A program made the translations under genes and the position numbers. This document shows, in pieces, positions 19,509 to 64,000 of a stretch of 64,000 nucleotides of DNA. Positions within the stretch are counted from its first letter, which is position 1; every line of letters begins with the position of its first letter. Source of the stretch: Monocercomonoides exilis PA203 (taxonomy: Eukaryota > Protista > Preaxostyla); contig LSRY02000045.1 of the NCBI GenBank assembly GCA_001643675.2, positions 620,001-684,000 on the forward strand. The letters run 5' to 3'. The notes beneath the pieces are model-generated. The model was not told the DNA's origin, did no database searches, and saw only the letters and a program-made list of their open reading frames with translations.

Positions 19509-19535
19509 AATCGGAACTGTTTACATAGAACCCCA

Positions 19536-25658: not shown

Positions 25659-26039
25659 ATCTGATTAATTGATCAAAATCAAAATATTTGTTTTTCAAAG
25701 AAAAACGGTTTCTCTTGATTGAACTTCTTTGCAATTATTAACAAATGAAATGTCCAAGGAATGCATCGATTATTTTTCCTGATAAACTTGATTTCCAATG
25801 TTGATTCGACTTTTCATTTGAATAGAATTTTTCATTTGCATTATACGCATGAACTTAACACAAATGCGAAAATTGAACACTCATATTCGATGCATCAAAA
25901 AATTTGATAAATTTAGTGGTTAGTATTTTATTCAAACAAAAAATATTTAATTTTTATTTATTATTCAATCATGCTTTAAAATTGAAAAGTTCACAGTTGA
26001 TAGTTAACATTTGTCTCTTTAATGGCATATAAGATAAAG

Positions 26040-42568: not shown

Positions 42569-44753
42569 AGTAGTATATAATGCGAGTAATTAAACCCACA
42601 TTTAAAAATGTGGCCCAAATTACTCACATTACGGCTCCAAATAACATCAAACAAGAAAATTCATAAATTTCAACTTAAATTAAGTATTAATATTTGAAAA
42701 ATGATGTGTTTTTTCACATACTTTAGTGTGATCCAAAATATTTACTGTTTTAAATTATTTCAGTTCATTTTTTTAATTCATAATAAAAATGTCAGTTCAT
42801 GTTTTTTCTTTTTTAAATTAAAGCAAATTTGAAAAACTCATATTTATATTAGAACTAAAACGAAATGACTCAGTAATGCGGTATTCGATTTGACTAATAC
42901 CAATAAGTGAAATATAAAACCAAAAAGTGAGACTTAAAACCGTTTTGATTGAGTCAAGACCAATTGATTCAATTCTGGGTGCATGATCACCATGAAATTA
43001 AAAAAATGATAGTTTAAAAATTTTCAATTTTGAATTTATAAATGAAGTTTATTTCATAAAAATTATTATGTTCATGTTTCTTCTAGAAAAAAATGGAGTT
43101 TTAAAGTTTTCACACTTTTAAAAATCCTTTGTTCAATTTTCTATCTGTCAAAATAGAATGAATTCAAAAAATAAAAAGTGTATATCATTCTTTTGATTAT
43201 TATTTATTGATTTGAAGTGTTCAAATATAATGATCAAAATAGACCAATGTTATAATAAATTAAATTAAAAAGAAAAGCAAAACACAGATTCAAATGACTT
43301 AAACAACAAAATTATTCATTGAAAACACATCTATTCAAATAATTACACAAAAATGATAAAAATCGTTAAATTTCACACATTGCTCATAAAAAAATGAACA
43401 AACTTTATTGTTCTGAGGAAAATATCCATCAAAAACAAAAATTAACTTAAATCAGTGAGTTTCTCAACTATTTCAAAACCAACGGCTCTTACAATGAATG
43501 CGAATAAGTAAAAAATGTGGTATTTCAATGGAAAAAACCAAAATATCAATCACCAAATTTATCGACATTTTGTTCGTGATCATCAATAAATATCATTCAA
43601 ACACAAAAGCAACAATGAAATAAAAAACATATCAAAAAATTAATAAAAATGAACTGCTCTGTAACAGAAAACACAAAAAACTTCAAAGAATTTTGATCAA
43701 AATTGATATATAATTTTTGTATTTTAGATCACAAATTAGATTGAGAGAAAACCGAATTGATTGAGTCAAAACCATTAAAATAGACAAAAAACGTTTTGAC
43801 TAAAACAATTCGAATTGACCCGCTAAATTCGTTTAAGTTCTATTAAGCTTTCATAACTTAAGGGTTATACCATGGCCTTTCATAATTAAGGTCAAAGGTT
43901 CAATACCCGTTAGAGGCGACAAATTTTCAAACATTTGTCAAATCAAATAAATCATGCCTCTTTGCGATATATGAGACAGAGTTACTCATAGCTGCGCTGC
44001 AGTCAAATTCGCAGTGAATTTAGAACTCAAATTCAAAATCTAATTCACAATAATAAATGATAAGTGATTAATGAAAAGTGCTTAATGAAAAGTGCTTAAT
44101 GAAAAGTGCTTAATGAAAAGTGCTTAATGAAAAGTGCTTAATGACAATCAAAATTAAACAATAAATAATTAATCGATATCGATAATTAAAATTAATCAAT
44201 CAATAATAATAATTATTGAAATCAAATCAATTACAAAACAAAATCCCAAATATTGAAAATTTCCAAAACTTTCAGTTCTTCTAAAAAATTAAATTGGACC
44301 CTTTTTCATATTTATTTTTAAAATTAAACAGGATCTATTTATGTGGGGGGAAAATGACAGAGATTTTTTAAAATCGAAATTTTTTAAATTTCTATAAAAT
44401 TAGGAATAATGAGCAAACAAAATTTTAAGAATAAGAAATTGAAGCCATCAGAAATACTTGCGAAAACATTATTTCGACTTGACGTTATTCCTGCTTTTGG
44501 AAGAGGATCTTATCAAAAAAATAAGAAACTGTTGAAAGATTATGGAAAACAACAGATTCAAGAACAAGAGTTTTTAAATGCAATAGACGAAAATATATAT
44601 GACGATGTTCAACTCTCTAAAACACATGACGAACGAAAAGAATTGAGAAAACAGAAACTTTATTCTATTATTGAAGCTGCAAACACTTTCAAATTGAGAC
44701 GTGAAAGAGCAAAAGAGCTTGATGATCAAATAGCAGTCCTCAAAAAAGAAAAA
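42569..44753 (+). repeat. Left terminal inverted repeat (~2185 bp)
   Basis: Reverse complement of 61944-64000 (64000 pairs with 42710); the left boundary is inferred from the canonical AGTAGT start. Confidence 0.9.
44068..44143. repeat. 14-bp tandem repeat TTAATGAAAAGTGC, 5 copies in the left TIR and 6 in the right TIR (~62560-62643)
   Basis: Counted directly. Confidence 0.9.
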
Positions 44754-47700
44754 GCAAAATTATTAAATGATATTCCAGTATTAGCAGAAAAAATGATGAG
44801 ATATCATCAGATTAATAAAAAAGATACATATGGAGGTGAATTCGTTAGTACTGGAGATGAGCAAGCTCGTGAAGCTTGTAAGGACTTTAAAGAATTCTTG
44901 GAAATGAACACAGATACTGAACAAGCTTAATTATTGGATGAACAGTAACATGAGCTCAAAACCAATAATAAAATTGATTTCGAAATGTTGAATAACGAAA
45001 CACGTGCTAAACTGTTTCCTGAATTGAAAAAATATCTTGAATCACTTGTTGATAAAATTACGAAAGAAGATAAATATGTGTTCACATTGAAAATTGGGAA
45101 CAAATGGAGATCCAAAAAACTGACTCCAGAATTGTATAAACAGTTACTGTCAAATTTTACTGAAAAGAATTTTATGATAGACTTGTATGTTGATAATCAA
45201 AATATCAATTTTTCTGATCCTGAAGAGAGTGATATTCCTTCATGGAGCTTATATTCTGCTATCCACATTATGAAGCTCGAAGATTTTATAAAACTTCATC
45301 CTTCATCAAAAATTGATAAACAGATTTATAAAGATAAAGGAGGACACTTCTTCGATTATGTAACTGTTGAATCAGTTAAAAAGCCTGTGACTGATTATCT
45401 TAATAGACTTCAAATTTTTGATAAATTGACAGATAATAATAATAAAACTCGAAAAGAATTATTTGATTGCTACTGGATATATGCCTTAAATTCATCAGGA
45501 CTATTCGATGATGAAACACTTGACAAGATAAGATTGCGGGTGAAAAACAAATATTTATCGTCAACAAAAATAGATGCAATATGCGAAGAGTTTTATATAC
45601 ACTGCATTATTCATGAGCTTGATGATGAAGTAGTTGGACATAATAAGTGTAGAATGTCAGCTCCTCAAAAAGCATTAAAACGTAAAACATATCTAGGAGT
45701 TGATAAAAAAGAAGCTAAATATATATTTGAGCTTAATCTTTATCAAAAGCATTATTTTATGGAAGAGAGATCTCCAATCACAGAATATTATTTAGATCAT
45801 ATGAACACACTGGATGAAACAGAATACAATGTATTTTATGAAGGATCGCACAAGTGTAGAGCAAAAGGAAAGAGAACAAAAGAAGCACTAACATCAAGGA
45901 ATTTGGTAAAGAAGATGTTTGCAAAACAGCTTTTCAGACCTATAACTTATGGTGAATATCTAAAGATAAGCGACATCACCAAGCCTAGTGTCAAACAGAT
46001 TAACGATTTGCATTATAATCCAAAATTTTGTGTGAAATCGTTTAAGCAAATTGTGAAAGAAAAAGAATTTAATTCGATGCGTTATTAAAGCAAAACTATT
46101 TCAGACTATTATTATGCAGATTTCGAAGCAGATACAACAGGTATTCATAGAGCTTTTTACTGCTGTATAACAAACGAAAATGAAACAAAACACTTCAAAG
46201 GAGAAGATTGTGCAATTGAACTGTTGAACTATATTCCTGACAACTCTTGTGTATATTTTCATAATCTAAAATATGATTTCTGTATGATAGCTAAACATGT
46301 GGATGAACTTTCAAATCAAATCGCGAAAGACAACAGATTAATGAGAATCACAGTGAAATATAATAAGAAAACCATTGTATTTAAAGATTCATTTTCGATT
46401 ATTCCAAATGCATTAAAGCAATTCCCAAAGATGTTCAATTTAAAAAATACCCAAAAAGAATTGTTTCCATATAATTACTATACATTAAAGAGATTGAAAA
46501 ATAATACTGGAATTATTCGTGAAGCAGGAGAGTGTGAAGCTAAAAAGTGGAACATCGAAGATTATGAGCTTTTTAATAAAAATATTGACACTATTCCAGG
46601 ATGTCGATTAAGTGATAACACATTCGATATGTATAAATATTGTGGATTCTATTGTGAACAAGATACAAAAATATTAAGAGAAGGATTTCTCAAATTTCGA
46701 GAAGGATTCATGAATGATTTCGATATTGATATTCACGATTACTGTTCAATAAGCTCTCTTGCAGATGCCACACTGACAAAACAAGTGTATTCGAAGAATA
46801 AGAATTTGTATAAACTGGGAGGAATCATCAGAGAGTTTATGCAGCAAGCTGTTCACGGAGGAAGATGCATGATTGCATGCAATAAAAAATGGCACTCCAC
46901 ATCTCCTATTGTGGATTATGATGCTGTATCTTTATATGCTTCTGCTATGCACAGATTATATATGGTTGAAGGAACTCCAAGTGTAATTGAAACAGATGAG
47001 CAACACTCTTATGAGTTTTTACAGAATCAGAGTGCATATGTGGTGGAAATTGAGATTACAAAAGTGAACAAACACTATCCTTTTCCTTTACTCGTATTTG
47101 AAGATGATGAAGGAAATAATTTTAACAATGATGTTATTGATAAACCAGTGAGAACAGTTGTAGATAACATATATTTGGAAGACTAGATAGAGTTTCAGAA
47201 AATAGAATTCACAGTATTAAAAGGATATTTCTGGACAGGCAATCGTGATTACTCAATCCAAAAAGTCATCGGAGAAATATTTAATAAGCGAGCTGCATAC
47301 AAGAAAGAAAAAAATCCTTTAGAAGTTATATACAAATTAATCATGAATTCTCTCTATGGAAAAACAATTCAAAAGCCTGTTGATTATGAGATAAAATACA
47401 TTAATGAAAATGATATAGGAAAATATTGGAGCAAAAATTATAATAAAATTATTGAGTCATCAAAAATAGCAGATTCAAGAAATAAAACTCATGTAGAAAA
47501 ACACAGAAGCAGATAGACACTCATTTCACATTTAATTTATTTGGAATTCATATTTTAAGCATGTCCAAACGTATTATGAATGAAGTGATGTGTCTTGCAC
47601 ATGATCTCAACTGTCAAATCTATTATCAAGATACAGACTCTATGCACATTAGAATTGATGATCTATCAAGACTAGAAGAAGCTTTCAAAATAAAATACAA

Positions 47701-48166
47701 TCGTGATTTGAAAGGAACTCAGCTGGGAAACTTCCACTCTGATTTTCCAATGAATGCATTATTCGCAAGTGAATCTTATTTCTTAGGAAAGAAAATGTAT
47801 ATTGACAAGCTAGTACTTCCTGAAAATAAAACATCTTTCATGTTTCGCATGAAAGGGATTAAGCAGTCAGCTGTTGAAGCAAAAGCTAAGGAATCAGATG
47901 AATGCGAAGATTCTCTGATGAAATTATACAAGTGCATATATAAAGGAAAAACAGTTGAATTTGATCTCACAAATGGATCTCCTTGCTTTGAATTTGAAAA
48001 AGATTTTACTGTTGCATCTCTTGAAACTTTTAAAAGACGCATTAAAACATCATTAGAAATAGGAATACCCCCCGAAGGGATAGAGATCCTTTGGATCAAT
48101 ATCACAAGCAAGTGCTCAAATAAGAGCACAAATATAGAAAAAACATTTATGAAATTCATATTATAA
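44409..48166 (+). pseudogene. polB: Protein-primed family B DNA polymerase with long N-terminal (terminal-protein-like) region; 4 in-frame stops and 1 frameshift
   Basis: ORFs 44409, 44985 and 46224 share one frame; ExoI YADFEAD, ExoII FHNLKYDF, ExoIII YCEQD, motif A DAVSLYASAM, motif B KLIMNSLYGK, motif C YQDTDS, KKMY; frameshift ~47480. The first 173 aa could be a separate gene. Confidence 0.93.
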
Positions 48167-48215
48167 TCAAATATTATTTTTATTATAATGAAATAATCAA
48201 TAATAATAAATACAA

Positions 48216-49466
48216 ATGACATCAAAATAAACTAATTCATCGACACAGTCGCTGAGAGCACGTTTGCGCATTCAATCACTCATTAAGAGTTTGTTAGCTG
48301 CGTCTGATTCTCTGCTCACAGAAATAGAAGTGTACAAGAAAATAAATAAGATTCCCACAAAAACTCGAGTGTTCAAAACATATTTTGAAGCTCACAAAAC
48401 AGATCTCATATTTGATATCACTATTGAAGAATTATACAACAGATATAGACTGGAGTATTAAAAGAAATATAATCCGAAACAGTACAAGAAACAGTTAAGA
48501 AATAATTATGAACTCATAATAGATGAGCAAACTCCTGAGCAAAATAAATTTCTTCAAGGCACGGGATTTAAATCAAAAAAGAAACAAGAATCACTTTTTT
48601 ATCAAAAATACAATTCTCTTCCTGCTGGACACTCAAAATATCTCAAGAATAGTTTTCCAGATAAAGAAAATAAGCAATACTATTTTCATCATGTGGGACA
48701 AAAATACACATTTTTGATAGATCTTATGTTTTCAGATAATTTATGTTATCTTGTTGCAATAGAACTAAATAATAGATATCTGTTTGTGGAGCCAACTAAT
48801 TTTTCTTCGAAAGATGAATCAAGCAGTGGAAAAGTCACTCATTCACAGCGTTCAGCTTCTGCTGTTGTTGAAGCTTTAAACAGAATGATTATAAGGGGAA
48901 TGAAAGTTAGATACTTGAGAGGAGATAGCGAACGTGCATTCAATAGCACTTTGGCTCACAAATATTTTAAAACTCACAACATTTCTTTTCAATCTCTTGT
49001 AAGTACAGGATCTTCTCACACACAAATGGCTCCGCTTGATAGAGTTGTCAGGACTATAAGAGACATGAATTATGCATCAAATCCTCATAGTGAGTTTATT
49101 AATCCAGTCAGAATGAAGCAACTGGTGTATTATTATAATAATGCTCCTCATTATAGTCTTTCAAAAATAATGAACTTCGATATCAGTCCTCAGCAAGTGT
49201 ACGATAATGAAGAATTGGAAAATGAGATCATTCGTCGAATTCATCAGTTGAATTTTAATATTATTAATTCTCTTGATTACAAGCTTCCGATCAACACTAT
49301 TGTCGTTTTAAAAGCTCATTATGAAAGATTAGACAAGAGAAGAATGAAAATTCTACCTGAAACGTTTACAGTAATCGGATATGATAAAGGAAAAATAAGA
49401 GTTGAGAGCAACGTTGATAATAGAATACTGCTTGTCTCAAGATGTGAAATAGCGAAACACAATTAA
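48216..49466 (+). pseudogene. Retroviral-like (RVE) integrase, D-D-D type; two upstream in-frame TAA, catalytic part 48462-49466 open
   Basis: LIDLMF, YLRGDSERAF, APLDRVVRTIRD, YYNNAPHYSL..SP; 48216, 48264 and 48693 are in the same frame. Confidence 0.88.
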
Positions 49467-49495
49467 AAAAATTACGATAAAAAATTTTCTGCAAC

Positions 49496-50500
49496 TTATG
49501 CTGTGCGTCTCCAAATTGCCAAATAAATTGCAGGAGGATCAATTGTGTGTGTATGACTATTACTGCCTCCTGTTGTGCTGAGACTTGCGGAATGGTTATG
49601 GCTTCCTCCAACTGCTGTGTAAAAATGGGTTTCACCTGATGAATCCCAATTAAATTCCATTCCAAGAATATTTCCAGGTGATCCGATACTTTGTAATGGG
49701 TGATATAAAGCATGTGTGTGTTCTCCACTGTTATCTATTGTGATGCTGTGAGTATGGCTTGGTATTTGAGAAGTTGTTAATGTCGTTGCACCAGAAGTTG
49801 ATGATCCAGATGTTGTGCCTATCAAATCTGCAGAAGATGCAGCTCTTATAAATCTTCCATTTGTTATCATTTTCCACGATGTTCCTGGATATGTTTTTGA
49901 TGGATCTGAAGCATCATATTTAATTATTACGCTGTTTATAGGATATATAACATTAACGATTGTTGTTAAAGATATCTGTTTTGCATCAATTTCTGATTTG
50001 TTGTAATAATTCTCTAATGATATTTGTTCTTTCTCGATTTCTAATAATTCTGTTCCATCCCACCAGTAATCAGGATCATTTGTCTCTTTTAAATAAAACG
50101 TTTGTCCAGTTTGTAATGTATTGACATTATCTTGAACGGAAAGCCATTGACACATATCTTCATAACTGTCAAACACTCTTGCTTTATATCCAACTTTAGC
50201 ATTCAATTCAGCGAACATATATCGATTCAAGTCTTGATTTGCTGTTATTGTTTCATTAATATCTTTAATCTTTTCTATAACACTTTCTTTCACTTTATCG
50301 ATATTCTCTAATGAATTATATATTTCTTTTATATTTTTGTCAACATTATTGAAATTCTCTAATGATTCATTTATTTCTTTAATACTTTCTTTCACATTAT
50401 CGAAATTCTTTAACGATTCATTTTTCATCTCCTGTTGCTGTTTGTGCTGAAGGATCATCAGAGCTATATTAGCGTTGATTGTTTTTAATGAGGAACTCAT
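49496..50500 (-). CDS. Fibre/baseplate-like structural protein: coiled coil + PDYWWDG domain + phage baseplate/tail-collar-like C-terminus
   Basis: Intact 334 aa; IYPINSV..DPSKTYPGTSW..GRFIRA..TLTTSQIPSHTH..HNH..PPAIYLAIWRRTA matches the pattern of phage gp10-C-like baseplate/tail proteins. Confidence 0.72.
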   Translation of the reverse strand: MSSSLKTINANIALMILQHKQQQEMKNESLKNFDNVKESIKEINESLENFNNVDKNIKEIYNSLENIDKVKESVIEKIKDINETITANQDLNRYMFAELNAKVGYKARVFDSYEDMCQWLSVQDNVNTLQTGQTFYLKETNDPDYWWDGTELLEIEKEQISLENYYNKSEIDAKQISLTTIVNVIYPINSVIIKYDASDPSKTYPGTSWKMITNGRFIRAASSADLIGTTSGSSTSGATTLTTSQIPSHTHSITIDNSGEHTHALYHPLQSIGSPGNILGMEFNWDSSGETHFYTAVGGSHNHSASLSTTGGSNSHTHTIDPPAIYLAIWRRTA

Positions 50501-50540
50501 TTATATATTGATAAAAATAAATTGTATTTCTTATTTTTGC

Positions 50541-51698
50541 TTAATAAAATGGAACACTAACTGGATATGTTATATTGAACTCAATAGTTCCCTTATTGTA
50601 ATACACCACTTGTTGAGATTTTATTTCCACAGTTATGTATGATACACCATCGTATTTAATTCGAACAGAACATGAACAATAATTTTCATAACCATCACCA
50701 CATCTGACTGTTATGCTGAATACGAAGTGAGATCCATCTGTGTATGGAGGAGACAAATAACTTTTTGCATTTGATACTGTGAATTTTCCAATTTGAATCC
50801 AAGCAGTTTTGTCATTGCCCGAGAGACTTTCAATATCTCCTCTGACATACATAGTGGCAAGCTCTCCATATCGACTAATAAATCCGAATGTGTTTTTCAG
50901 CAAGCTATTTCCAGTGAAAGCAAGTTTTTCTGAAGTTGGAATTCTGACTGCTCCAACTTTATTGTCAACGTATTGTTTTGTCACCAAGTGATAAATATTT
51001 GTTGGAACTGCTGATGTTGTTATTGCATTTGCAAATGTTTTGCTTCCAGTGATAGTTTCTGTTCCACTCAAATGAACCACACTTTCGTCATTAGCTTTTG
51101 AAGAATCACTTGGATGAATATGATCTTCTCTTGCATATTTATCTGATGTTCCGGCATTAACAGAACCATCCATTAACGGATTACTTGTTCCTGCTTTTTC
51201 TGATAATTCATCAGGAAGAACGTCAACTGATAACTTTCCACTTTCATCTAATCCTGCATATCCATTTGCTTTATCTTTATTTGTTGTTTTTTCATATCCT
51301 TCCAACTCAATTCCAGTTAAATCAATCATGTCTTCTGATATGGTTAGATATGATGATGCAATTTTTCCATTATTGTCAAGAGGAACATATCCATTCGCTT
51401 GTCCTTTGTTCTCAATCTTCTCACAAGTTTCAACAATATTATCAATCTGAACTGCTTTATAGTACTCGTTAAGTTCTCCCACACTAAAGTCACTAACATC
51501 ACACTCAATTTTCTTTAACGCTGTTCCATCCCACCAGTAATCAGGAACATTATTTCCTTTTATAAGTATTAATTGTCCTTTTACGAGATTTCCTTTATTC
51601 ACATCGATCCAAGTTTGCATCTCTGAAGCTGAATCAAACACTAAATTTCTTGTGCCTGTCTGTCTGAGCTGTCTCTGATAAATATCTGATGTTTGCAT
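50541..51698 (-). CDS. Phage tail-fibre-like protein (likely start MQTSD at 51698)
   Basis: Intact; PDYWWDG domain; two KxxANGY(V/A)xLDxxGK repeats; PLMDG..GTSDKYAREDHIHPSD; VVHLSGTETITGSKTF; VTKQYVD; beta-rich C-terminal head. Confidence 0.75.
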   Translation of the reverse strand: MQTSDIYQRQLRQTGTRNLVFDSASEMQTWIDVNKGNLVKGQLILIKGNNVPDYWWDGTALKKIECDVSDFSVGELNEYYKAVQIDNIVETCEKIENKGQANGYVPLDNNGKIASSYLTISEDMIDLTGIELEGYEKTTNKDKANGYAGLDESGKLSVDVLPDELSEKAGTSNPLMDGSVNAGTSDKYAREDHIHPSDSSKANDESVVHLSGTETITGSKTFANAITTSAVPTNIYHLVTKQYVDNKVGAVRIPTSEKLAFTGNSLLKNTFGFISRYGELATMYVRGDIESLSGNDKTAWIQIGKFTVSNAKSYLSPPYTDGSHFVFSITVRCGDGYENYCSCSVRIKYDGVSYITVEIKSQQVVYYNKGTIEFNITYPVSVPFY

Positions 51699-51751
51699 TT
51701 TCAATGATATTAAAAAACTAAAATTAATCGTTTTAACTGTTTTTAAAGATA

Positions 51752-52583
51752 ATGTTAAAAACACTTGTGAAAGTCCCTCCAAAAAGATACATAAAACAAA
51801 TGAAGGTGGAATTAACAGATTCAGACACTCAAACCACTAATCAAAACACTCAGAGTAATAATGTGGAAAATATTAATGAAAGAAATCTTTTTTATTCCAA
51901 TGAAAATAGTATGCCTATTCCAATTTCTGTATCAGCGAATTTAACCAAATCAACACATACTTCAACTCCATCGATGTCTAGTACAATTAACGTAAATGTG
52001 GCTGCAGGAAACACTGATTCAACAAAGGAGGCAGCTTCAAGAAGAAACAGTCAGCAAGAGCGAGAACAATCAATTCCTGAACGGATCTCTGATCCTCGAG
52101 GGGACTTTGTCCCCGAAGCACTTCCTTCACTTCCAGAATCGTTCGATAATTTCACAGCTTATCCTTCTGTTCCATTTGAACCATCAGCGCCCTCTTCATC
52201 AACACATCCTTATCCATTGTATTCGTTGCGAGAATCAATAACTATTAATCCTGATGACGAAAACAGATTTAAAGATAAATATATCGAGTTACTCATTAAT
52301 GTGATCAATTCTCCAAAAAAAGTGCTCAAGAGTTGCATTGAACCCAGTAAGATGATTATTCTTCCTGCTGATGAATTAACAATATTGATTGCATTATTGT
52401 AAGGAGTCAACGATGTTGAAATCATTATTGAAGAACAAGCAGTATCGTGTTTAGGAAAAGTGAAGTTCATCAAAGATATCTCTCGAATATTAGTCGGTGG
52501 ATTAGATCTTCAAATAAAATATTATCACATTTACAACAGACTGTTAGGTTATCATGTCTCTCTTGTTCACACATTCTTGAATA
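51752..52583 (+). pseudogene. Polinton hypothetical protein (low-complexity N-terminus; frame continues past TAA at 52400)
   Basis: 216-aa ORF followed by an in-frame continuation GVNDVEIIIEE... Confidence 0.5.
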
Positions 52584-52938
52584 ACTCGAAAGAAAAATAA
52601 ATGTTATATATATTTTTGAAAGAAAAATCCTTCGCCTGAATTTCAGGCAACGATTATTAAAGTCATTTTTTGAAGATGCAGAACTTTCCGTATCATCATT
52701 TTTTGACATAAGTTGAATAAATCATTAGTTGAATGCAAAAATGATATCAAATCAACTGTTTTCATAGTCAAAAATGATACGACACAAGTGACTAAGTTTT
52801 TCATGTGCCGATGTGTGTCATGCCGTTTTTGCATATGAGATGTCCTGATTTCAGTCTCAATATTGATCAATCTTATGTCTAAAACTGCAAAAGACCGGCA
52901 CAATCAGCACTGCACAAGTGAGCGATTCAAGATTCTTT

Positions 52939-53072
52939 AAAAACAGGTTTGCAGGTCTGCGTATGTTACGTTACATAAATAATTGATTGATGAACTAATG
53001 TCAATGCACAGGGTGCACAGGGTGCACAGGGTTATTTCACTTCTTGTAAAATCAGTGGCCATACGGACATAT
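52939..53072 (+). repeat. Internal inverted repeat, left arm, with three TGCACAG(G/T)G iterons
   Basis: Reverse complement of 55824-55957. Confidence 0.92.
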
Positions 53073-53139
53073 GTGACATTATTGTTTGAAAAATATATCC
53101 AACATATAAGCTAAATACCCCTGAAGCAATAGAGATTCT

Positions 53140-55758
53140 TCAAATCGATAGTGCATCTACAATTTCATCTCCTGCAGTTATTGTTTGATGATACAAAGAC
53201 TTACATTCATCTTTCAATATATAATACCATGATCGTACTCCATTTTTTGTTTTTTGTTTATGAACGCATTTATCTTTGATCTGCAGTTGAAAATTTTTAT
53301 CTTTCATCTCACAAGGTTTATTTGCAAGAGCATCTGTACATTTCATACCTTCGCATAGGTCATCATAATAATCACAAATCCAGTTTTCAAAAGGGTTTTT
53401 GCTTGCCTCGATTATATCTTGTTTTGCTTCTGTTATTGGAATTAATCTAACGTTGAACTTTGAGAGATCTCTTTTCATGAAATACGTTAACAGATTATCA
53501 TAGAATTCCGTTGTAAATGAATCACATAATTGTTCAAAGAATGAAAAGTTATTTTTGTATTTTCCATTACATGCAAGCACAACGTATCTACGATCTCCTA
53601 TTTCTATTTTTAAAGGAAAAGAATTATTAGTTACGAATATAAAGTTAGCAACATTTTCAAAATTTCTTCTTGGTTGATTCTTTTCGTTTATTCTTATTAC
53701 TATATCTGTAATGACTGATTTTAATGCATTGAAGTTTGCTAGTCTATCTTCTCCACAGTTCTTGAGTTCGTTTAATATTATTAACATTTTGCTTTCTACA
53801 ACAGAATTAAAGTTACCTGTCAATTCTCCTATTTCTGTAACATTTCTGCTCGAATATCCAGCAAACAATTCAGATATTACATCTGTAAATCTATTCTAAC
53901 CAATCCCTTGAAGTCCTTTCAATACCAAGGCAGTTTCATTTTTGATTCCAGGATGTTGAACAATATTAGCAATCCAGTTAATAACATATTCATATAGTTC
54001 ATCATTTGAATCTGCAATTACCTCTCGAACAAAGTCAAGAAACATTGATATTATTTTCATGGCGACTTGTTCAAGAATTCGATACTTAAACCCTTGAAAC
54101 ATAGAATACATGTTTGGAATATCTAAAGCATTAAACATAACACCTTGTAATGTTAATTTGGATAAACCTGTGAGTAGAATGTCATATGCAGTTATTGTTT
54201 TCGATTCAGTCTTCCACGATTGTATCATCTTTAGATTTTTCTTCATATTTGTATCTGTGACGAAAGCAATACACCAGCATTTGTCAAATATATTATACTC
54301 TTTTTGTATATACATTGATCCAGTTTCAATAAATCGAAAAACTCTTGAAAGATCAGTAAATACTTCACTATTGTTTTTATACTGGCCACTTTCTGATTTG
54401 TTTCTTATATCTGTTTGTGAAAATGAATCATATAAATCAATTGGTTCGATACACTTTTCATATTCAACTGCTTCTTTTTCTTTTGAACTTTTCAAAAGTT
54501 TCATTTTCTTTATCTCAGGAACAACAGTGTTTTGATAATATTCTGGACACCAGATCTTAACAATCTTTTGTAAGACATAAGGTGTTGATTTCTTATTCAA
54601 ACAGTTCTCTCGTGTTTTATCCCAATTCAGATCAGCATTGGCTGTTAAAGTATTATTGCTTTTTATCTCTTGATAATACGCTTCGATGTCTTCTTCTTGT
54701 ACTGATTCGATATTAATGAGACTGTTAATGGCGCAAAACAATGGGAATAACGATAATTCTTTATCGATACTGAAATGACAATAATTATGAATTGTAACAT
54801 TTGTGATTCCACAAACAAGCACTTCAGCAAACTCTTTCGGCATCGAGCAGAGTCCATCAGCTGTTAGATGTATGTTCGTATCATCATTAAATGAATCATA
54901 TCGAATATCAATACCAAATATGTTTAGTATATCTTCCAATGATGAAAGATTCGATTTGTCAAGATAGTTATTCAAGTCAACATAATTTTTAACTATTTTT
55001 GAATCTCCTTTGACTCTTTCACGTATTCTGGTCTCAGCCTGTTCAATGAATAGATTGATTGCAGAATCATTATATCGACCAGTTATATCACACTCTTCTT
55101 TTGCTTTCTTTTTCAGTTTCTCAGGAATATGTATTGTTGCATCCTTGCTCTCTTCTTCAGTGAACTTTATTATTTTTGTTTCGGCTTGAACAAGACATCG
55201 TCGATTTCCATTCACACAAGTAAACACATCTATCTCATAGTCGGAACACTTGTAGACTTTTGTTTGTGAATCAGTCTTTAATGGATATTCATCTCGGTCA
55301 CAATAGATATGTAATCCACCATTTCCTGTCTGAACTAATCCAACATTTTCTGGTAATCTTAAGAGAATTGATTGTCTGATTTTTTCTTTTCTTTCTTCGT
55401 CGACTGCTTTGTTTATATCGATATCAACTACAGCTGGATTATCAATTTTGCTGATATCAATATATTGTCCTGTTTTTTGTCCTGTTTCATAAATCGTTTC
55501 ATCTGTATCCTTGTTCTTAAATTCTCGAGACACTTTCTTGTAATTGTATCATGGTTTTATACATCCATTTATTCGTTCACCAATAGTTTTCTTTTTCATC
55601 ATTTCTTTTCGTATTCTCTGTTTTTGTTCTTCCTGTACAAACATCTTTTCTATTATTGGATCTTCGTCAACCATTAATGCTGGATTCTTTTTAAAAGATC
55701 AGAATTTATGACCATCGTGTTTTCCATTTGTCTTTTTAGTGGAAGCAAAAAAATCCAT
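53140..55758 (-). pseudogene. AEP (Prim-Pol-like) primase fused to a D5-like SF3 helicase; 3 in-frame stops
   Basis: VVDIDI and VQTGNGGLHIY (AEP motifs); Walker A GLQGIG*N with the Lys replaced by TAG 53896; Walker B IILNEL; motif C IFVTNN; DRR. Frame opens at ATG 55758 and crosses two TGA. Confidence 0.88.
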
Positions 55759-55823
55759 TTTTTTTAAAACAAAACTTATTTTTGATTTTAGTTTTCAAAT
55801 GCATTTTTTCATATATATGACCA

Positions 55824-55957
55824 ATATGTCCGTATGGCCACTGATTTTTTAAGAAGTGAAATAACACTGTGCACCCTGTGCACCCTGTGCATTGACATTA
55901 ATTCATCACACAATTATTTATGTAACGTAACCGCAGCAGACGAGCAGACATGTTTTT
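55824..55957 (-). repeat. Internal inverted repeat, right arm
   Basis: Reverse complement of 52939-53072. Confidence 0.92.
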
Positions 55958-56099
55958 TCTATTAATTAAAATGACCCGGTGAACTGACATTCTTTTTCGA
56001 TATTTCTTTTGTGAATCGTTAATGTTTCTTTAACATAAATGAAAAAAATATTATTAATATTGTCATAAATAATGAAAACAGTTTTGATATATTTTTGAT

Positions 56100-56627
56100 T
56101 TAATACTCCAACATGTATTTCATTACGAACTTGACATTAGACATATCCAAAGGAGTTTCATCAAAATTTTTGAACCAAACTCTGAAGTTATCTTGTTGAA
56201 AAAACTGCTGATATTTATCTCTCTCTTGAAATTCATTACAATACCTAACAAGTGAATCATTATCTTTATCTTCATGAATGAAATCCCCATGTAATGAAAT
56301 GTGTTTAGGCTCTTCAAGTGCAATAGTATTTATTAAATTTGAAGATTCAGTGTTGTTTAATTCAATTTTTCGAATTAGTTTACACCATATTACATGAAAA
56401 TATCTTTTGCGTTTTGAATTTATAAACGCTTTTGGAAGAATAGTGATTAAAGTTGATGTTGTGTGATATCTTTTAACAGGCACACAGTTCTCATAATTTA
56501 TATCTATGTTCGATGAAATATCACACAGGGTCAAGGTCTGCAGAGCAGCCTTCGCTGGATGCACTTCATGTGCAGTCATTTTCTGAAAATTAAAATCCCA
56601 AAGCATTTCAAAAATGAAATTAAACAT
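56100..56627 (-). CDS. Polinton hypothetical protein (beta-rich; minor capsid/penton candidate by position and size only)
   Basis: Intact ORF downstream of the capsid candidate; no motif recognised. Confidence 0.55.
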   Translation of the reverse strand: MFNFIFEMLWDFNFQKMTAHEVHPAKAALQTLTLCDISSNIDINYENCVPVKRYHTTSTLITILPKAFINSKRKRYFHVIWCKLIRKIELNNTESSNLINTIALEEPKHISLHGDFIHEDKDNDSLVRYCNEFQERDKYQQFFQQDNFRVWFKNFDETPLDMSNVKFVMKYMLEY

Positions 56628-56757
56628 TCATCGATTCAGGTGTTGGAAGTCTTGGAGGATCTTCATTTTTTATTGCTGCTGTTAATAATAAACACTGGAA
56701 TGTTTGGACAATTGTTGATATTATTAATGTTGTGCAAAGGACAATTTCAAATAACAT
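56620..56757 (-). CDS. Small 45-aa hydrophobic, putative membrane protein
   Basis: Manual translation MLFEIVLCTTLIISTIVQTFQCLLLTAAIKNEDPPRLPTPESMNV*; below the ORF-track cutoff. Confidence 0.4.
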   Translation of the reverse strand: MLFEIVLCTTLIISTIVQTFQCLLLTAAIKNEDPPRLPTPESMNV

Positions 56758-56826
56758 TTATGTATTTGTAATGATTGACTATTTCATTATTGATAAAAAT
56801 TAAAAATATATATATAATTGGTTGGT

Positions 56827-58587
56827 TTATTCTTCTAATTCTCCAGCTGGAGTATATCCTAACTCACTTAATACATCTTCTGTAGTATGATCTTTAACAT
56901 ATTGAACATTTAATCCATCTTTGAGACTAAAAATCCAAAATGATTGTTGAACCATGTTGAATAGAGGAGCAGGGGGATGTCTTGCATTTTGAGTGAGATC
57001 ATCTCTAACGTTGTAATAAGTATCTGTTTCTCCACTGTAAATGGGAGTTCCTCTGAGTTCAACAGAAACAGGAGTATTTCCAGTGTGAATTCCATAAAAA
57101 CAGATTCCAGTTCCACAACTTCTCTCACACTGTGTTGTGAACATGAATGATGTTTCATCAGTAGTTGGAAAGAAGACTTCAGAAGCATTATTTTTGACAC
57201 TTGTGAGACTCTCTTCATACTCCTCAGTGGCTGGGAATAAAGAATCAAGATCTGAAGCATTAAGCATCATCTGGAAAAACATTGCATCTGTAGTATTTAA
57301 AGGCTTTTCAGGGAATCGTCTATCACCGATGTAGAGTTGGAGCTCTTTATATTGAGGGTTATCAAATGTTGTCCAATGACGAGTATCTTTTTGGAATAGA
57401 GAAACTGTTGACATAACATGATTAAAGCATAAGTTGTCATGGCACTGTTGAAATCCTGAAGGAGTAGGAGCACTTCCTAATCTTTTTGTCTCAATTCTTT
57501 GTGAAGGAACTACAAATGGATGAGAAGAGAAGTATTCAACAAGATTAGTTTAGCACTGAGAAGACACATTTTATCCCGCAATAGAGATCTTACAGTCTTT
57601 CGTCTGGCAAAATGTGACTGTGGGAGTAAACTCAGGAATAATAGTTTCATAATTGAATCCATCAACAGTTCCTTCAGCAGTTAAGTCATAATTAAATACA
57701 AACTGACGTGAAGGACAGTTTATTTGTGTGAACTTCTTTGCATACTCAAAACATGAATCAGGAGTAGTAAGGATCATCTTCATTACGCTATCGTAGTTTT
57801 GTCCTTGTGAAGATTTGAAGAAGTTTCTTCGTTTTCCTACAGTTTTGATCATGGACATTTTTGGAGATACTCGACAGTTAACAAGTGCTTCAGGTTTTAT
57901 GGTGTATTTGAGTTTCAAATTTCCGAATAAACGATTTGGATAATCAATAAATCCTGAAAACAGAAGAATATCATCAAGAGGAATAGATATTGGAATATCA
58001 ATATCAAGATAAGATCCTGCTTTAATTAGTGTTATCGGAACGTAGACTCCACAAGCAGAATTATCATATTTGTGCACATTATCATATAAAGAGTGTATAT
58101 GTTTTCGATTATCTTTCTCAGTTTTTGGCTTGATTGTGTTATATATAAATGATTCAATAGTTGCATTGGGCTGACGAGTAGAATCAATAATCTTATCTTC
58201 TCCATGAACAACACAATAATCTGAGATAATATTTGATCCTGATCTCAGTCCGATGAACATAAATTGAGACTCAAGCAGTTTCTTTCCTGCTTGTGAGATC
58301 TCATTATCGCGTGTAACAAGATCATGAGAGAAATTAATTCTTGCAGTAATGACTGTAGTAATAAATGAATCGTGAATTTGTGTGACATCCACATTTGCGT
58401 TAGTCATCGATATGTTTATTTCATGAGTGTAATCCAAAGGAAGTTTTTCATCAGGAATAGCTTCAGAAATAGAATAATAGTGTCTTCCATCGTTGATTGC
58501 AGTCATTTTTGAATAAGTTTTTAATGCAGCCTCAATATTTCCGACAGGCTGTAACCCAAGTGATTTTGTAACATGCAGATTTGACAT
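56827..58587 (-). pseudogene. Probable major capsid protein (divergent double jelly-roll), ~586 codons, two in-frame TAA
   Basis: ORFs 57571..58587 and 56827..57414 are one frame (IAG*NVSSQC*TNLVEYFSSHPFVVPSQRIE); largest beta-rich structural-type ORF near the ATPase. The fold is inferred. Confidence 0.6.
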
Positions 58588-58645
58588 TTCGTATTTAATA
58601 GAAGATAAAAACTTGAAGAATATAATATTTTATCGCTATCAAAAT

Positions 58646-58999
58646 ATGTCAGCTGGAATTTGGAACAAAATGAAAAACTTTTTCTCGAATACATTTAATA
58701 CTGTGAAGAATGGAATTAAATGGGTGAACGATAAGGTAGTGAAGCCTCTTATTCGACCGGTATTGAATACTGTATCACCATTCCTTCCTGGTCCTGGAAA
58801 ACTAATTAATAACGTTGTCAACACAGTGAGTGATTTTGCTGATAATGCTCTTGGAAACAGAAGCAGAAACATCTCTTACGATCTGCAATATTCCAACAAT
58901 TCAGGAACATTAAACAGATCAGGAGGAATGAATCGAGCAACATCGAGTACATCAGATATTCTAAAGCAAGGATTGCTTAACAGAAGAGTTCAACTTTAA
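58646..58999 (+). CDS. Small basic protein with N-terminal amphipathic helix (adenovirus protein VI-like membrane-penetration candidate)
   Basis: MSAGIWNKMKNFFSNTFNTVKNGIKWVNDKVVKP. Confidence 0.6.
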   Translation: MSAGIWNKMKNFFSNTFNTVKNGIKWVNDKVVKPLIRPVLNTVSPFLPGPGKLINNVVNTVSDFADNALGNRSRNISYDLQYSNNSGTLNRSGGMNRATSSTSDILKQGLLNRRVQL

Positions 59000-59075
59000 A
59001 AATAAAATTATTAATGGAATCCACAAAAATATTTTTCACTTGATGTTATTATTTATTTTTGTATTTATAATTTGT

Positions 59076-60083
59076 TTAGAATTGTTCTTCTTCGATATCC
59101 ATCTTGTCAGAAATCGCTGAAGATAAAGAAGACGAAGAAGCTGATGATGATGAACTTGAGCCTTGATTAGATTTGATAAATATTTCAATTAAAGGATTCT
59201 GAAGATCCGGATTTGTATTAATTAATGGGACGAAATTTGTCAAAGGATTTTGAGAAGTGAATATCATTTTTGCAACTTGAATCGTTGTTGGAGCATATCT
59301 TTTTATGAGAACATCGAAATCGTTATCAGTTAATCGAGAGTAGAATGCTTTCCAATACTTTCTGTGCTTTGATATCACATTTCCTTTATCGATAAACATA
59401 TTGTAAATACCGATGTTTGGATTGATAGCCATCATCATATCATGAATCAAACACTGTCTGTATATTACAGAATTTATTTTTGTTAGATGCTGACTGTAGG
59501 TGAATTTCTTATTTTCACATAATTTTCTCACCTCATCACTTGTGTCGAAACTTTATTGAAACCTCTCAAGGATCTGTGAAACTACTCTCTTTTTGAAATC
59601 AATATCCATTCTGTCAACTTGTCCTTTATGAAGATTCTTCAAATAATCAACATATTTGTTCTCACGTCTGTCATTCAAGTTTGGAAATTTATCAATATAA
59701 TTACACATTAGTTTTCTTCTCTTGCGCTCATCTCCTGTTGTATATCCATCAACTGCATATATATCGTTATTTGGAGTTTTCCAAATGATCTAATCGGGAG
59801 TATCAGGGTTGTTATCATGATCTATTGAATCGAAACTCCAATCTTTTCCTTCTTTCCAAAGTTTATTTCGTTTCAGATAGTTTTTCCCTGACTGTTCACT
59901 CATTAAACCTTTAATATATCGTATTTCCTGTTGTTGATCAAGTATAATATGTTTCAATTCATCCATTCCAAGTTTTGCTTTTGGGCCACCTGCATGTGCC
60001 TTTTTTCTATTGGTGGTATCTGATGAAAATAGTGAAATTCCTTTTTTTGGTAACTCAAGCAGATTTAGACTGTTAAACATCAA
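59076..60083 (-). pseudogene. Polinton hypothetical protein (~335 codons, two in-frame stops)
   Basis: ORFs 59790..60083 and 59076..59531 join in one frame through TAG 59790 and TAA ~59552 (manual translation). Confidence 0.6.
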
Positions 60084-60144
60084 TAGTTCTTTTATACAAG
60101 ATAAAAATGTTTTAATCAGATTAAAATACTAAATAATTATCATT

Positions 60145-61119
60145 ATGAAAAGTGGACAGATTCTTCCTGCGTTCCTCGTAGGAAGCAGCGAGAGATCGCA
60201 GCTTCTTAAAGAAATCAACTCGAGATCCTTAGAGACAATCGTGAATAGAAGAAACAGAGAGGCAGAATTAGATATCACGTATGAGATTCAATCAGATATA
60301 CATCCAGATCTGTTTTTCATACGTATTTCTGTTAATTTGCTTGTAGGAGGAAGAGGAAGTGGAAAAACATATAGTGTTTTGAAAGAACTAGCTAAAGTGA
60401 GTGCATTAGATGAATTATATCAAGAATATGATGTCACTCCTGAGTTGCATTTTGGAGGCTATTCATTATTTGTGTATGTGTCTGACAAGAGTTGTGATCA
60501 AACATTTGAGAGGATGAAGAAATTTATTGAATTTCCAATAGTGCAAGTGAGATATAATGAAGCTTTAAAAACACTAACTGATATCAGTAATGCCAAAGAA
60601 CTATATCGTGACATACGCAATAGAAAACAACAGGATGAATCAGTTGTGAATGCTGTATTGGAGACACTGCATATAGAAGACTTTTCTCAACCTGTTCATC
60701 ACACAGCAGTTTTATTTGATGACTGCATGGAGATGTTCAAAAAGAAAGATGGATTATTTGGATTACTGTTTGAGAATAGACAGCCTATGATCACATTCTT
60801 CTTATGCTAACAAGATCCAAAAGGAATATGCTCAGAAGTGAAAGCTAATTTGGACACTCTGTGGATATTTGAAGGATTCTCCAAATTGAAGTTCAATTAT
60901 GTATATTATCAGTTGCAGACTAATCAAGATCGTGATACTCTATGGGAAGGCTACAAAAATTTAAGCAGAAGAGACATCATGCACTTCTCATATGATGATG
61001 ACGGGACAAAAATAAAGACCATTATTAATGCTAAAAAGGATGACCCCCGACAGGGATCAGAACTAAGCGATAAGAACAGAAGAACAGCTATCAACGTGAG
61101 ATATGTTAGAAATATTTAA
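60145..61119 (+). pseudogene. A32/FtsK-like genome-packaging ATPase (one in-frame TAA)
   Basis: Walker A LLVGGRGSGKT, Walker B AVLFDD, Arg finger ENRQ, FFLC*QD, KANLD; 60145 and 60838 are in the same frame. Confidence 0.88.
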
Positions 61120-61463
61120 AGAATTCTATTATTTTTCAAAGTTTCTACAACGATTTCCATTTGTTTTGACAAAATATAGATTGCATCAATAATTTCAGAA
61201 TCGTTCGATAAATTTTTCGACAAGATATTATTTGAAGATTTCTTTAGTGATATCTTGTTATTGAGTTTAGTGATTCTATATCCTTCTATGTGATATTGCT
61301 TATTGAGTTTACATGTTGATAGCTTATTCATCTCTTCTTCATTATCTGTTAGATATTCTTTAAACTCCTGAACTGTTTCAAATGTTTTAATATCAGGTGA
61401 AAAAGGTTCAATTATTGTTATATCTGGTAATTCTTTTTTAACAATTTTGGCTGTTTTTGACAT
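61116..61463 (-). CDS. Polinton small hypothetical protein (115 aa)
   Basis: Intact ATG ORF preceded by the TTTTATC motif. Confidence 0.65.
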   Translation of the reverse strand: MSKTAKIVKKELPDITIIEPFSPDIKTFETVQEFKEYLTDNEEEMNKLSTCKLNKQYHIEGYRITKLNNKISLKKSSNNILSKNLSNDSEIIDAIYILSKQMEIVVETLKNNRIL

Positions 61464-61520
61464 CTTTTAAAAGAAGATAAAAATAAAAATCACTTACGTT
61501 TTATTCACTTATGATATTCA

Positions 61521-61868
61521 TTACTGTTTTATATCTTTACTTTCATCAGTGCTATCTGGTATGTTCTTTTTAAAATCTTTTTCAGCACGAAGTGCCGGGA
61601 ACAGCAAACTGTTTTCACAATATTTTCTATAAGCCTCTTCAATAGAAATATATTTAGCATTATTGAGAATTGTTTGGACCTCTTTTAAAGTGTCTTCACT
61701 TTCGAACATGTTTTTTGAAAGCATTTTTATGACAGTTAGTTGAATTGAATGTGAATGCTTTTTAAAGAACTCATTTTGTAATTTGTATCTTTCTTGACTT
61801 TTTCTTATTTGCTGCAGTTGTTTTGCTTTTGCTTCTTCTTCTGATTCATATAACTTTTTTCTTCCCAT
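61521..61868 (-). CDS. Polinton small basic/helical protein (MGRKKLY..., possible DNA-binding)
   Basis: Intact 115-aa ORF. Confidence 0.6.
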   Translation of the reverse strand: MGRKKLYESEEEAKAKQLQQIRKSQERYKLQNEFFKKHSHSIQLTVIKMLSKNMFESEDTLKEVQTILNNAKYISIEEAYRKYCENSLLFPALRAEKDFKKNIPDSTDESKDIKQ

Positions 61869-61916
61869 TGAATTTTAAATTGAATAAAAAAATATTTGAA
61901 TTATTTTTTTATCATA

Positions 61917-62288
61917 TTATTTTTTCTTTATGTTGAAATTTATTTTTTCTTTTTTGAGAACTGCTATTTGATCATCAAGCTCTTTTGCTCTTTCACGTCT
62001 CAATTTGAAAGTGTTTGCAGCTTCAATAATAGAATAAAGTTTCTGTTTTCTCAATTCTTTTCGTTCGTCATGTGTTTTAGAGAGTTGAACATCGTCATAT
62101 ATATTTTCGTCTATTGCATTTAAAAACTCTTGTTCTTGAATCTGTTGTTTTCCATAATCTTTCAACAGTTTCTTATTTTTTTGATAAGATCCTCTTCCAA
62201 AAGCAGGAATAACGTCAAGTCGAAATAATGTTTTCGCAAGTATTTCTGATGGCTTCAATTTCTTATTCTTAAAATTTTGTTTGCTCAT
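61917..62288 (-). CDS. Truncated duplicate of the first 115 codons of the 44409 ORF, carried in the right TIR
   Basis: Identical protein up to ..AVLKKEK, then 8 unrelated residues. Confidence 0.75.
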   Translation of the reverse strand: MSKQNFKNKKLKPSEILAKTLFRLDVIPAFGRGSYQKNKKLLKDYGKQQIQEQEFLNAIDENIYDDVQLSKTHDERKELRKQKLYSIIEAANTFKLRRERAKELDDQIAVLKKEKINFNIKKK

Positions 62289-64000
62289 TATTCCTAATTT
62301 TATAGAAATTTAAAAAATTTCGATTTTAAAAAATCTCTGTCATTTTCCCCCCACATAAATAGATCCTGTTTAATTTTAAAAATAAATATGAAAAAGGGTC
62401 CAATTTAATTTTTTAGAAGAACTGAAAGTTTTGGAAATTTTCAATATTTGGGATTTTGTTTTGTAATTGATTTGATTTCAATAATTATTATTATTGATTG
62501 ATTAATTTTAATTATCGATATCGATTAATTATTTATTGTTTAATTTTGATTGTCATTAAGCACTTTTCATTAAGCACTTTTCATTAAGCACTTTTCATTA
62601 AGCACTTTTCATTAAGCACTTTTCATTAAGCACTTTTCATTAATCACTTATCATTTATTATTGTGAATTAGATTTTGAATTTGAGTTCTAAATTCACTGC
62701 GAATTTGACTGCAGCGCAGCTATGAGTAACTCTGTCTCATATATCGCAAAGAGGCATGATTTATTTGATTTGACAAATGTTTGAAAATTTGTCGCCTCTA
62801 ACGGGTATTGAACCTTTGACCTTAATTATGAAAGGCCATGGTATAACCCTTAAGTTATGAAAGCTTAATAGAACTTAAACGAATTTAGCGGGTCAATTCG
62901 AATTGTTTTAGTCAAAACGTTTTTTGTCTATTTTAATGGTTTTGACTCAATCAATTCGGTTTTCTCTCAATCTAATTTGTGATCTAAAATACAAAAATTA
63001 TATATCAATTTTGATCAAAATTCTTTGAAGTTTTTTGTGTTTTCTGTTACAGAGCAGTTCATTTTTATTAATTTTTTGATATGTTTTTTATTTCATTGTT
63101 GCTTTTGTGTTTGAATGATATTTATTGATGATCACGAACAAAATGTCGATAAATTTGGTGATTGATATTTTGGTTTTTTCCATTGAAATACCACATTTTT
63201 TACTTATTCGCATTCATTGTAAGAGCCGTTGGTTTTGAAATAGTTGAGAAACTCACTGATTTAAGTTAATTTTTGTTTTTGATGGATATTTTCCTCAGAA
63301 CAATAAAGTTTGTTCATTTTTTTATGAGCAATGTGTGAAATTTAACGATTTTTATCATTTTTGTGTAATTATTTGAATAGATGTGTTTTCAATGAATAAT
63401 TTTGTTGTTTAAGTCATTTGAATCTGTGTTTTGCTTTTCTTTTTAATTTAATTTATTATAACATTGGTCTATTTTGATCATTATATTTGAACACTTCAAA
63501 TCAATAAATAATAATCAAAAGAATGATATACACTTTTATTTTTTGAATTCATTCTATTTTGACAGATAGAAAATTGAACAAAGGATTTTTAAAAGTGTGA
63601 AAACTTTAAAACTCCATTTTTTTCTAGAAGAAACATGAACATAATAATTTTTATGAAATAAACTTCATTTATAAATTCAAAATTGAAAATTTTTAAACTA
63701 TCATTTTTTTAATTTCATGGTGATCATGCACCCAGAATTGAATCAATTGGTCTTGACTCAATCAAAACGGTTTTAAGTCTCACTTTTTGGTTTTATATTT
63801 CACTTATTGGTATTAGTCAAATCGAATACCGCATTACTGAGTCATTTCGTTTTAGTTCTAATATAAATATGAGTTTTTCAAATTTGCTTTAATTTAAAAA
63901 AGAAAAAACATGAACTGACATTTTTATTATGAATTAAAAAAATGAACTGAAATAATTTAAAACAGTAAATATTTTGGATCACACTAAAGTATGTGAAAAA
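61944..64000 (-). repeat. Right terminal inverted repeat (runs off the window)
   Basis: Reverse complement of 42710-44753. Confidence 0.93.

Follow-up and report, generated by a model that had tools for sequence, protein, structure and literature searches.

Among the viruses integrated in protist genomes, the closest described relatives of the element reported here are those of the Metamonada group, defined by its major capsid proteins (MCPs). In the part of Bellas et al. 2023 (PMC10120064) available to us, this group was seeded by MCPs of Trichomonas vaginalis and Streblomastix strix, and the accessible text of a 2026 framework preprint (10.64898/2026.06.19.733378) still leaves it unplaced among Polinton-like viruses (PLVs). 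Our locus lies on contig LSRY02000045.1 of the gut protist Monocercomonoides exilis, in a stretch of 64,000 nucleotides (contig positions 620,001 to 684,000, forward strand) that we analysed whole and call the window; coordinates below are window positions. From 42569 onwards it holds a 21.5-kb endogenous PLV with terminal inverted repeats (TIRs) on either side, integrated in the host genome. M. exilis is not known to have mitochondria and can be grown in culture. We give a probability of roughly 65% to the reading that this is a broken copy of a Metamonada-group PLV, whose identical ends were equalised by recent recopying with the proteins of healthier sister copies.

Sequence comparison places the element in the published group, directly through S. 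strix proteins homologous to its MCP and, for T. vaginalis, through a shared column of Table S4 of PMC10120064. In the portion of that table at hand, the column (the 40th by our count) holds six M. exilis hits beside 820 from S. strix and 651–1,107 from T. vaginalis, and the window copy is probably one of the six. The available part of that paper gives M. exilis one MCP cluster, as against three in T. vaginalis, and reports MCP counts for it rather than a gene map; relative to that part, the penton candidate, vOTU-type motif, nested cassette, hairpin inserts and TIR history described below are additional. In our own searches the MCP had 42 homologues, comprising one M. exilis protein (MONOS_9166, 96% identity), 37 from S. 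strix (29–41% identity) and four others, and a profile search reached 680 clusters at 50% identity. In a FastTree phylogeny of 82 MCPs, built without named outgroups, the three M. exilis rows form one branch, which groups with seven S. strix and three other rows (support 99). The first-pass annotation had proposed a protist-specific lineage with divergent capsid proteins, and the S. strix homologues, together with a modelled double-jelly-roll (DJR) MCP, bear this out; the lineage itself is not new, since it falls within the published Metamonada cluster. The element thus adds one member to a group that is known but has yet to be placed, and two of its traits are unexplained.

The gene content recalls that of animal Maverick-Polintons and adintoviruses: a protein-primed DNA polymerase (pPolB) in the order terminal protein (TP), putative vOTU, exonuclease, polymerase; a putative RVE-type integrase and a putative ATPase, both recognised by motif; a predicted DJR MCP; and long TIRs that start with AG. 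Unlike those viruses, the window element has no adenain/Ulp1 motif, its MCP has no Pfam match (DUF4106 in 0 of 27 MCPs) and found nothing relevant in a profile search of PDB sequences, and it carries an extra archaeo-eukaryotic primase–superfamily 3 helicase (AEP–SF3) gene and two phage-like fibre genes.

Healthier sister copies exist. Two proteins of the window have identical NCBI records, placed on an 810,774-bp contig, and cluster with M. exilis proteins of four other scaffolds, one of which encodes an intact 586-aa MCP (MONOS_1525), an ATPase (MONOS_1524) and a fibre (MONOS_1528). There are about six copies, 2–10% apart. Exact protein look-ups found 1 of 10 and then 2 of 8 window proteins, and no sister integrase, pPolB or penton sequence. 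Metagenome contigs gave five related loci of 1.3–3.1 kb; there were no long relatives in viral contigs for the MCP, pPolB or ATPase, nor in genome contigs for the MCP or integrase. A literature search that had most subscription journals outside its reach found nothing on Polinton/Maverick elements or their MCP in Monocercomonoides. The framework preprint, whose accessible text asks for more genomes, leaves few PLV groups unplaced, and the Metamonada elements are one of them. Our gene-by-gene map contributes a candidate penton, a protein that may be membrane-active and a pPolB with a vOTU-type motif. The family is small (about six copies, one fairly intact) and lends itself to two questions: do virions form when there is no maturation protease, and can defective copies be moved in trans? 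Most worth following are the hairpin inserts and the fact that a broken genome has homogenised TIRs.

The ends and the decayed interior

The following features carry the argument on the element's history (open reading frames, ORFs, are treated in the next section where they belong to other genes).

42563..42568, no strand: candidate target-site duplication (TSD) of 6 bp, AGAATA, left copy only (sequence)
42569..44761, + strand: left TIR, 2,193 bp, AGTAGT start (self-comparison, junction-bridging contigs)
42851..43841, no strand: non-coding insert of 991 bp in the left TIR, resembling a miniature inverted-repeat transposable element (MITE) (TIR comparison, sister contig, depth)
44409..48166, + strand: pPolB gene, start inside the TIR (PF03175, reading frame, homologue alignment)
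48231..49466, + strand: RVE-type integrase, one in-frame stop (motif D..D..38 aa..D)
53140-55548, - strand: AEP primase–SF3 helicase gene (PHROG primase, DUF5906 and VapE-like matches)
56827..58587, - strand: predicted DJR MCP, 586 codons, two in-frame stops, no frameshift (homologues, predicted fold)
60145..61119, + strand: packaging-type P-loop ATPase, one in-frame stop; four sister copies (motif)
61936..64000, - strand: right TIR, cut by the window end (self-comparison)

The AGTAGT at 42569 is the element's start, as first annotated, and AGAATA stands directly 5' of it. Read-derived contigs bridge this junction in three of four runs, and summed depth jumps in the bin from 42569 (from 45 to 610 in run X1 and from 96 to 1385 in X3). 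By TIR symmetry the right end is predicted at 64141, near which the first-pass annotation expects ACTACT followed by a second AGAATA; no terminal loose ends of read-derived contigs occurred among the matches listed. The left TIR includes a subterminal stem-loop (42578-42631) and a 14-bp tandem array near 44069-44147; the right one carries a truncated copy of the pPolB start. The 2.2-kb TIRs of the first-pass annotation are real as long repeats, but 991 bp of each is the nested insert; without it and one copy of its repeat, the left TIR measures 1,199 bp. In both TIRs, around 43870-43920, we noticed by eye a B-box-like motif resembling a Pol III promoter; ARAGORN and Rfam found no tRNA gene or RNA family, this stretch included.

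The insert has 14-bp terminal inverted repeats (13/14) and ATT at both sides. Its copy in the right TIR (62870-63859) is 99.9% identical to the left one, while a sister contig lacks it and crosses the insertion site uninterrupted, and in run X4 a loose end at 42851 picks up again at about 43846. At its left end, depth is 40–90 times that of the flank (3,634 against 40 in X1), with foreign loose ends, as expected of a host MITE; it probably represents an undescribed M. exilis MITE family.

Between these ends the genome is decayed. The annotation 'near-complete' is right for the span, but the copy is broken, with at least 11 in-frame stops (11 counted in 14,205 coding nucleotides) and one frameshift, in pPolB near 47496. 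Stops fall in pPolB, integrase, helicase (at the position of the Walker A lysine), MCP and ATPase, so the window copy cannot complete a cycle alone and would be a defective passenger. Across 477 MCP positions it has 15 private residues, against 4 and 5 in two sisters. The stop density corresponds to about 1.4% private substitutions and hence to some 55 differences between the TIRs, had both decayed in place. The TIR pair instead shows 0 substitutions over 2,027 matched bases; it differs by one 1-bp gap and one extra 14-bp unit, and its four mismatches all lie within the innermost 23 columns. A decayed interior, identical TIRs and a shared insert together imply an equalisation of the TIRs that postdates both the insert's arrival and most of the decay. 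Such recent homogenisation was likely brought about by helper-driven recopying.

An old insertion could also have decayed where it stands and never been re-mobilised, if hairpin pairing or intrachromosomal gene conversion maintained the identity of its TIRs. This would explain the same data (no TIR substitutions, a common insert, a decayed interior), and the 2.2-kb arms are long and only 17 kb apart. It would, however, need a recent, full-length tract, since homogenisation reaches the inner boundary, and an internal 141-bp inverted repeat, though much shorter, is just 88% alike and has not been homogenised. We regard conversion in place as unlikely and favour recopying in trans.

Part of the pattern might instead come from assembly, in which case a young, largely intact copy would have received its stops from the mixing of similar copies, or its TIRs would have been collapsed. 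According to the part of PMC10120064 available to us, many stops in endogenous viral elements were assembly artefacts and were removed by re-polishing; here, about six copies stand 2–10% apart and three of the four listed stop alleles lack contig support. Against this, window-private alleles have about single-copy depth in X1 at some ten listed sites, including the stop at 44928 (the only one of the four with contig support), and several exact-match contigs are single-copy. The window's TIR alleles at 42734 and 42935 are minority alleles within the family, and an exact-match TIR contig has a depth of 77, twice that of the flank (39.7), which argues against collapse to a family consensus. Mixing copies would also shuffle existing alleles without creating new stops. 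We consider an artefact quite improbable, more so than conversion in place.

All 11 counted stops are TAA or TAG, and S. strix elements use TAR for Gln in the accessible part of PMC10120064, so one might suppose an intact element under a non-standard code in which these codons are read as a residue. Sisters and homologues, however, vary at the stop positions (Tyr, Leu and Lys-type columns rather than one residue), a frameshift is present too, and normal gene ends use the same codons. We reject this explanation, which has next to no probability in our view.

Several points weigh against recopying of a broken copy as we describe it. The right end and the right TSD copy lie beyond the window, and all four public read runs come from one sample. 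At the stops 47185, 57551 and 57571 the window letter occurs in no contig. Among the 40 variant rows listed for X1 (of 1,128), 16 have depth left over for the window letter and 24 have none, but contigs drop variants, so a missing letter does not show absence. The re-polishing reported in PMC10120064 also counts here. In the model of the MCP, the second jelly roll (residues 367-545) has a pLDDT below 50, and the vOTU-type domain was called by motif and position because neither Pfam nor Atlas gave the pPolB N-terminus an OTU name.

With helper proteins from sisters, recopying would run as follows. The integrase would excise and insert the linear genome, as in the cycle presumed for the family. 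pPolB would use its N-terminal terminal-protein domain as primer, have it removed by the vOTU domain, and copy the genome in strand-displacement mode. Pairing of its TIRs would fold the displaced strand into a panhandle, in which one TIR could be rewritten from the other, a step known in general terms from protein-primed linear genomes. The ATPase would pump the DNA into a capsid of MCP trimers whose vertices bear a compact penton and fibres and which matures without a protease. A defective passenger would thereby carry its own mutations, and the TIR-borne MITE, to both ends. If identical TIRs do sit on a long-decayed genome, TIR identity is an unsafe marker of age or activity for Polintons.

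As an observation in its own right, A/T transversions dominate the differences between copies at 44400-62400 (289 of 854 sites in X1) and outnumber either transition class; the other three runs are similar.

Replication and capsid genes

pPolB matches PF03175 (E 2e-37), and its layout comprises a presumed terminal protein, a vOTU-type domain, an exonuclease and a polymerase. The window copy has four in-frame stops besides its frameshift. The ORF from 44409 is in frame with the rest of the gene, and sister contigs have a sense base at its first stop; the N-terminal region can be aligned with eight full-length pPolBs. In all eight of these homologues, a Cys motif is followed about 80–95 residues on by a His, just before the exonuclease; here the motif lies near 45465-45485 and the His codon at 45750, and the window copy has Tyr in the conserved Cys column. 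The available part of 10.1101/2024.03.18.585575 places a vOTU domain in the same position, in the order TP-vOTU-exo-pol. By its motif and position, the domain probably serves terminal-protein cleavage rather than capsid maturation.

In the integrase, the first-pass annotation had noted Asp instead of Glu at the third catalytic position, and PLDRVVRT is indeed there, giving D-D-(38)-D by motif. The protein has no relevant match in Pfam, PHROG or NCBIfam, nor in a PDB sequence search. The Asp may be shared by the whole family, or it may be private to this decayed copy, since Asp and Glu codons are one A/T change apart and such changes are the commonest difference between copies. The other genes first annotated have counterparts too: pPolB in broken form, the primase–helicase, the fibre-like genes and, by its Walker A and B motifs, a putative packaging ATPase. 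Beyond weak P-loop matches in Pfam, the ATPase found nothing relevant in Pfam, PHROG, NCBIfam or PDB sequences; judging from its motifs and context, it may be of the A32 type.

The 586-codon ORF is predicted to be the DJR MCP, in keeping with the earlier expectation. Its model, built from 27 sequences, has a mean pLDDT of 52.5. Foldseek returned DJR proteins in all 30 rows listed (best E 5.4e-6), and in the VIA comparison the top 14 rows are all DJR, with alignments that cover both halves (for PBCV-1, Z 10.4, rmsd 5.4, 283 residues aligned). Around it lie further genes.

49496..50500, - strand: tail-fibre-like protein 1 (Gp10_C, phage tail-fibre PHROGs)
50541..51698, - strand: tail-fibre-like protein 2; three sister copies (phage tail protein matches)
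51752..52600, + strand: orphan ORF, carries a hairpin insertion (ORF)
56100..56627, - strand: compact penton candidate, single jelly roll (lies directly downstream of the MCP; alignment match by eye)
58646..58999, + strand: small 117-aa protein whose N-terminal helix is amphipathic (in relatives, too, found next to the MCP)
59076..60128, - strand: orphan ORF, two in-frame stops (ORF, HMM scans)
61116..61463, - strand: orphan, 115 aa (ORF)
61521..61868, - strand: small basic protein (tblastx to metagenome loci L002 and L004; L001 by eye)

No clear penton had been seen at first, and that statement stands as far as searches go: for 56100-56627, none of six homologue candidates passed, there was no phage match, Atlas recognition stayed below threshold with no useful family, and the single-sequence model has a pLDDT of 37. 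Its place fits the positional rule for pentons in the available part of PMC4028283, and in strand pattern and C-terminus it looks, by eye, like the penton alignment in the portion of that paper's supplement at hand, minus a central insertion. On these grounds we think it a fairly probable candidate for a compact penton.

The 117-aa product is a candidate membrane-active or minor capsid protein. It matches N-terminal extensions of nine MCP-hit proteins, which are apparently gene-model fusions, and the hydrophobic moment of its N-terminal 18-mer is reached by 151 of 4,091 other 18-mers. This helix may resemble the lytic helix of adenovirus protein VI. ORFs similar to the small basic protein adjoin the MCP in L001, L002 and L004, and a homologue of tail-fibre-like protein 2 lies near the MCP in related metagenome contigs. 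The orphan at 51752-52600 probably reads through a stop at 52400.

The first-pass annotation had found no adenain-type cysteine protease and had supposed protease-independent maturation. No adenain/Ulp1 Q..CG motif occurs in six frames, and among the ORFs no protease family was matched except by a 40-aa fibre segment similar to a PHROG labelled peptidase; a very divergent protease may lie within the two long orphans. The absence of any cysteine protease is qualified by the Cys/His motif in the pPolB N-terminus. Maturation without a protease is likely but ordinary among PLVs: in the accessible text of 10.64898/2026.06.19.733378, no major PLV group other than Gosseviruses has a cysteine protease in its core set, and in that of PMC4028283, Tlr lacks a maturation protease as well.

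Hairpin insertions and the primase–helicase cassette

Copies of the element differ by GC-rich, often double-hairpin insertions of 33–66 bp with short direct repeats. The window copy has 33–66 extra bases at five sites (15 of 21 joints were listed), and at five further sites it is sisters that carry short inserts, different from these (12 of 23 rows were listed). In sister ATPases, some inserts appear as in-frame peptides, and nested inserts occur.

48064..48097, no strand: polymorphic double-hairpin insertion, 34 bp, 4-bp direct repeat
48237..48278, no strand: polymorphic GC-rich insertion, two weak hairpins
52079..52114, no strand: 36-bp polymorphic double-hairpin insertion that keeps the frame, direct repeat of 3 bp
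56519..56551, no strand: 33-bp polymorphic hairpin insertion that keeps the frame of the penton candidate, repeat of just 1 bp
60161..60202, no strand: 42-bp polymorphic double-hairpin insertion that keeps the frame of the ATPase, direct repeat of 4–5 bp; in a sister a second insertion is nested inside it

At the four exact joints the direct repeats measure 4, 3, 1 and 5 bp (chance 0.03, 0.08, 0.5 and 0.01, respectively). A scan of the 17-kb interior found five double hairpins, four of which overlap insert sites, a modest excess over shuffles (1.65 +/- 1.3; 3 of 60 shuffles reach five); four host regions showed no such excess. Compared with shuffles of the same site, folding is better at three of the five insert sites (z -2.25 to -3.21) but not at the other two (z -0.63 and -0.65). 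There is no sequence similarity among the inserts or between them and the window flank, and no paper listed by our literature search, screened mostly by title and opening of the abstract, describes such insertions in Polintons.

The nearest likeness is to mitochondrial GC clusters as described in the available part of PMC4478555, which are GC-rich palindromes of 30–45 bp with presence/absence polymorphism, short direct repeats and nesting. GC clusters form sequence families, however, whereas the window inserts have no common sequence within the element and sit in a nuclear-integrated virus, often in frame in genes. Our leading guess as to their source, offered tentatively, is de novo snap-back synthesis by the AEP. 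At a staggered break, the primase-polymerase would extend the DNA by several random, GC-rich bases, snap back and repeat, leaving double hairpins of 30–45 bp with short target duplications and a common structure rather than sequence, often in frame in core genes. The accessible part of 10.64898/2026.10.13.758929 reports terminal-transferase activity for some AEPs. The inserts may otherwise be host mini-elements or repair-associated insertions. That both processes operate, with the AEP writing such hairpins and dead genomes being moved in trans with rewritten TIRs, we regard as doubtful when taken jointly. If made de novo, hairpin insertions would supply viral genes with sequence in a new way.

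The AEP–SF3 gene is enclosed by its own inverted repeat:

52939-53079 / 55817-55957, - strand: 141-bp inverted repeat, 88% alike, around the AEP–SF3 gene (self-comparison)

Depth is lower over this cassette and the window copy's sequence there is single-copy, which suggests that the cassette is swapped or variable among copies. The arrangement resembles that of PLVs in the available part of 10.64898/2026.10.13.758929, in which an AEP–SF3 gene sits in inverted repeats of its own within a pPolB–integrase element. By comparison with that part, we saw no endonuclease near the cassette and no clean TSD around it, and a relative, P0203, has the AEP domain fused to pPolB. In P0203, residues ~1450-1707 form an AEP-like domain similar to the window element's primase, and 9 of the 14 members of its cluster have this 1,707-aa fused form. 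A 4.4-kb deletion in a sister (52117-56561; one contig, one run) was considered as a sign of cassette mobility and rejected: neighbouring genes are lost too, so it is no clean AEP excision. Sister copies in all four runs also show an inversion-type joint, 52039 / 60206; the ends of this joint and of the deletion lie at or near hairpin inserts.

Neighbouring host DNA

To the left of the element, the window includes a seemingly DIRS-like retroelement at 16300-22500 (- strand), in which a reverse-transcriptase motif, YLDD, is accompanied by an overlapping ORF of 732 aa (18373-20571). A host protein of 3,594 aa (5476-16260) has a kinase-like C-terminal domain and a degenerate partial duplicate at 1613-2302. 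Palindromic repeats of ~250 bp at 22849-25659 and 34030-34286, three of them at 1,275-bp spacing, are probably another host MITE or a tandem unit. A 281-aa ORF (36607-37452, - strand) with no Pfam match carries a Cys-box-like motif resembling that of ubiquitin-specific proteases, and tandem arrays of 20–21-bp repeats occupy 328-998 and 4699-5204.

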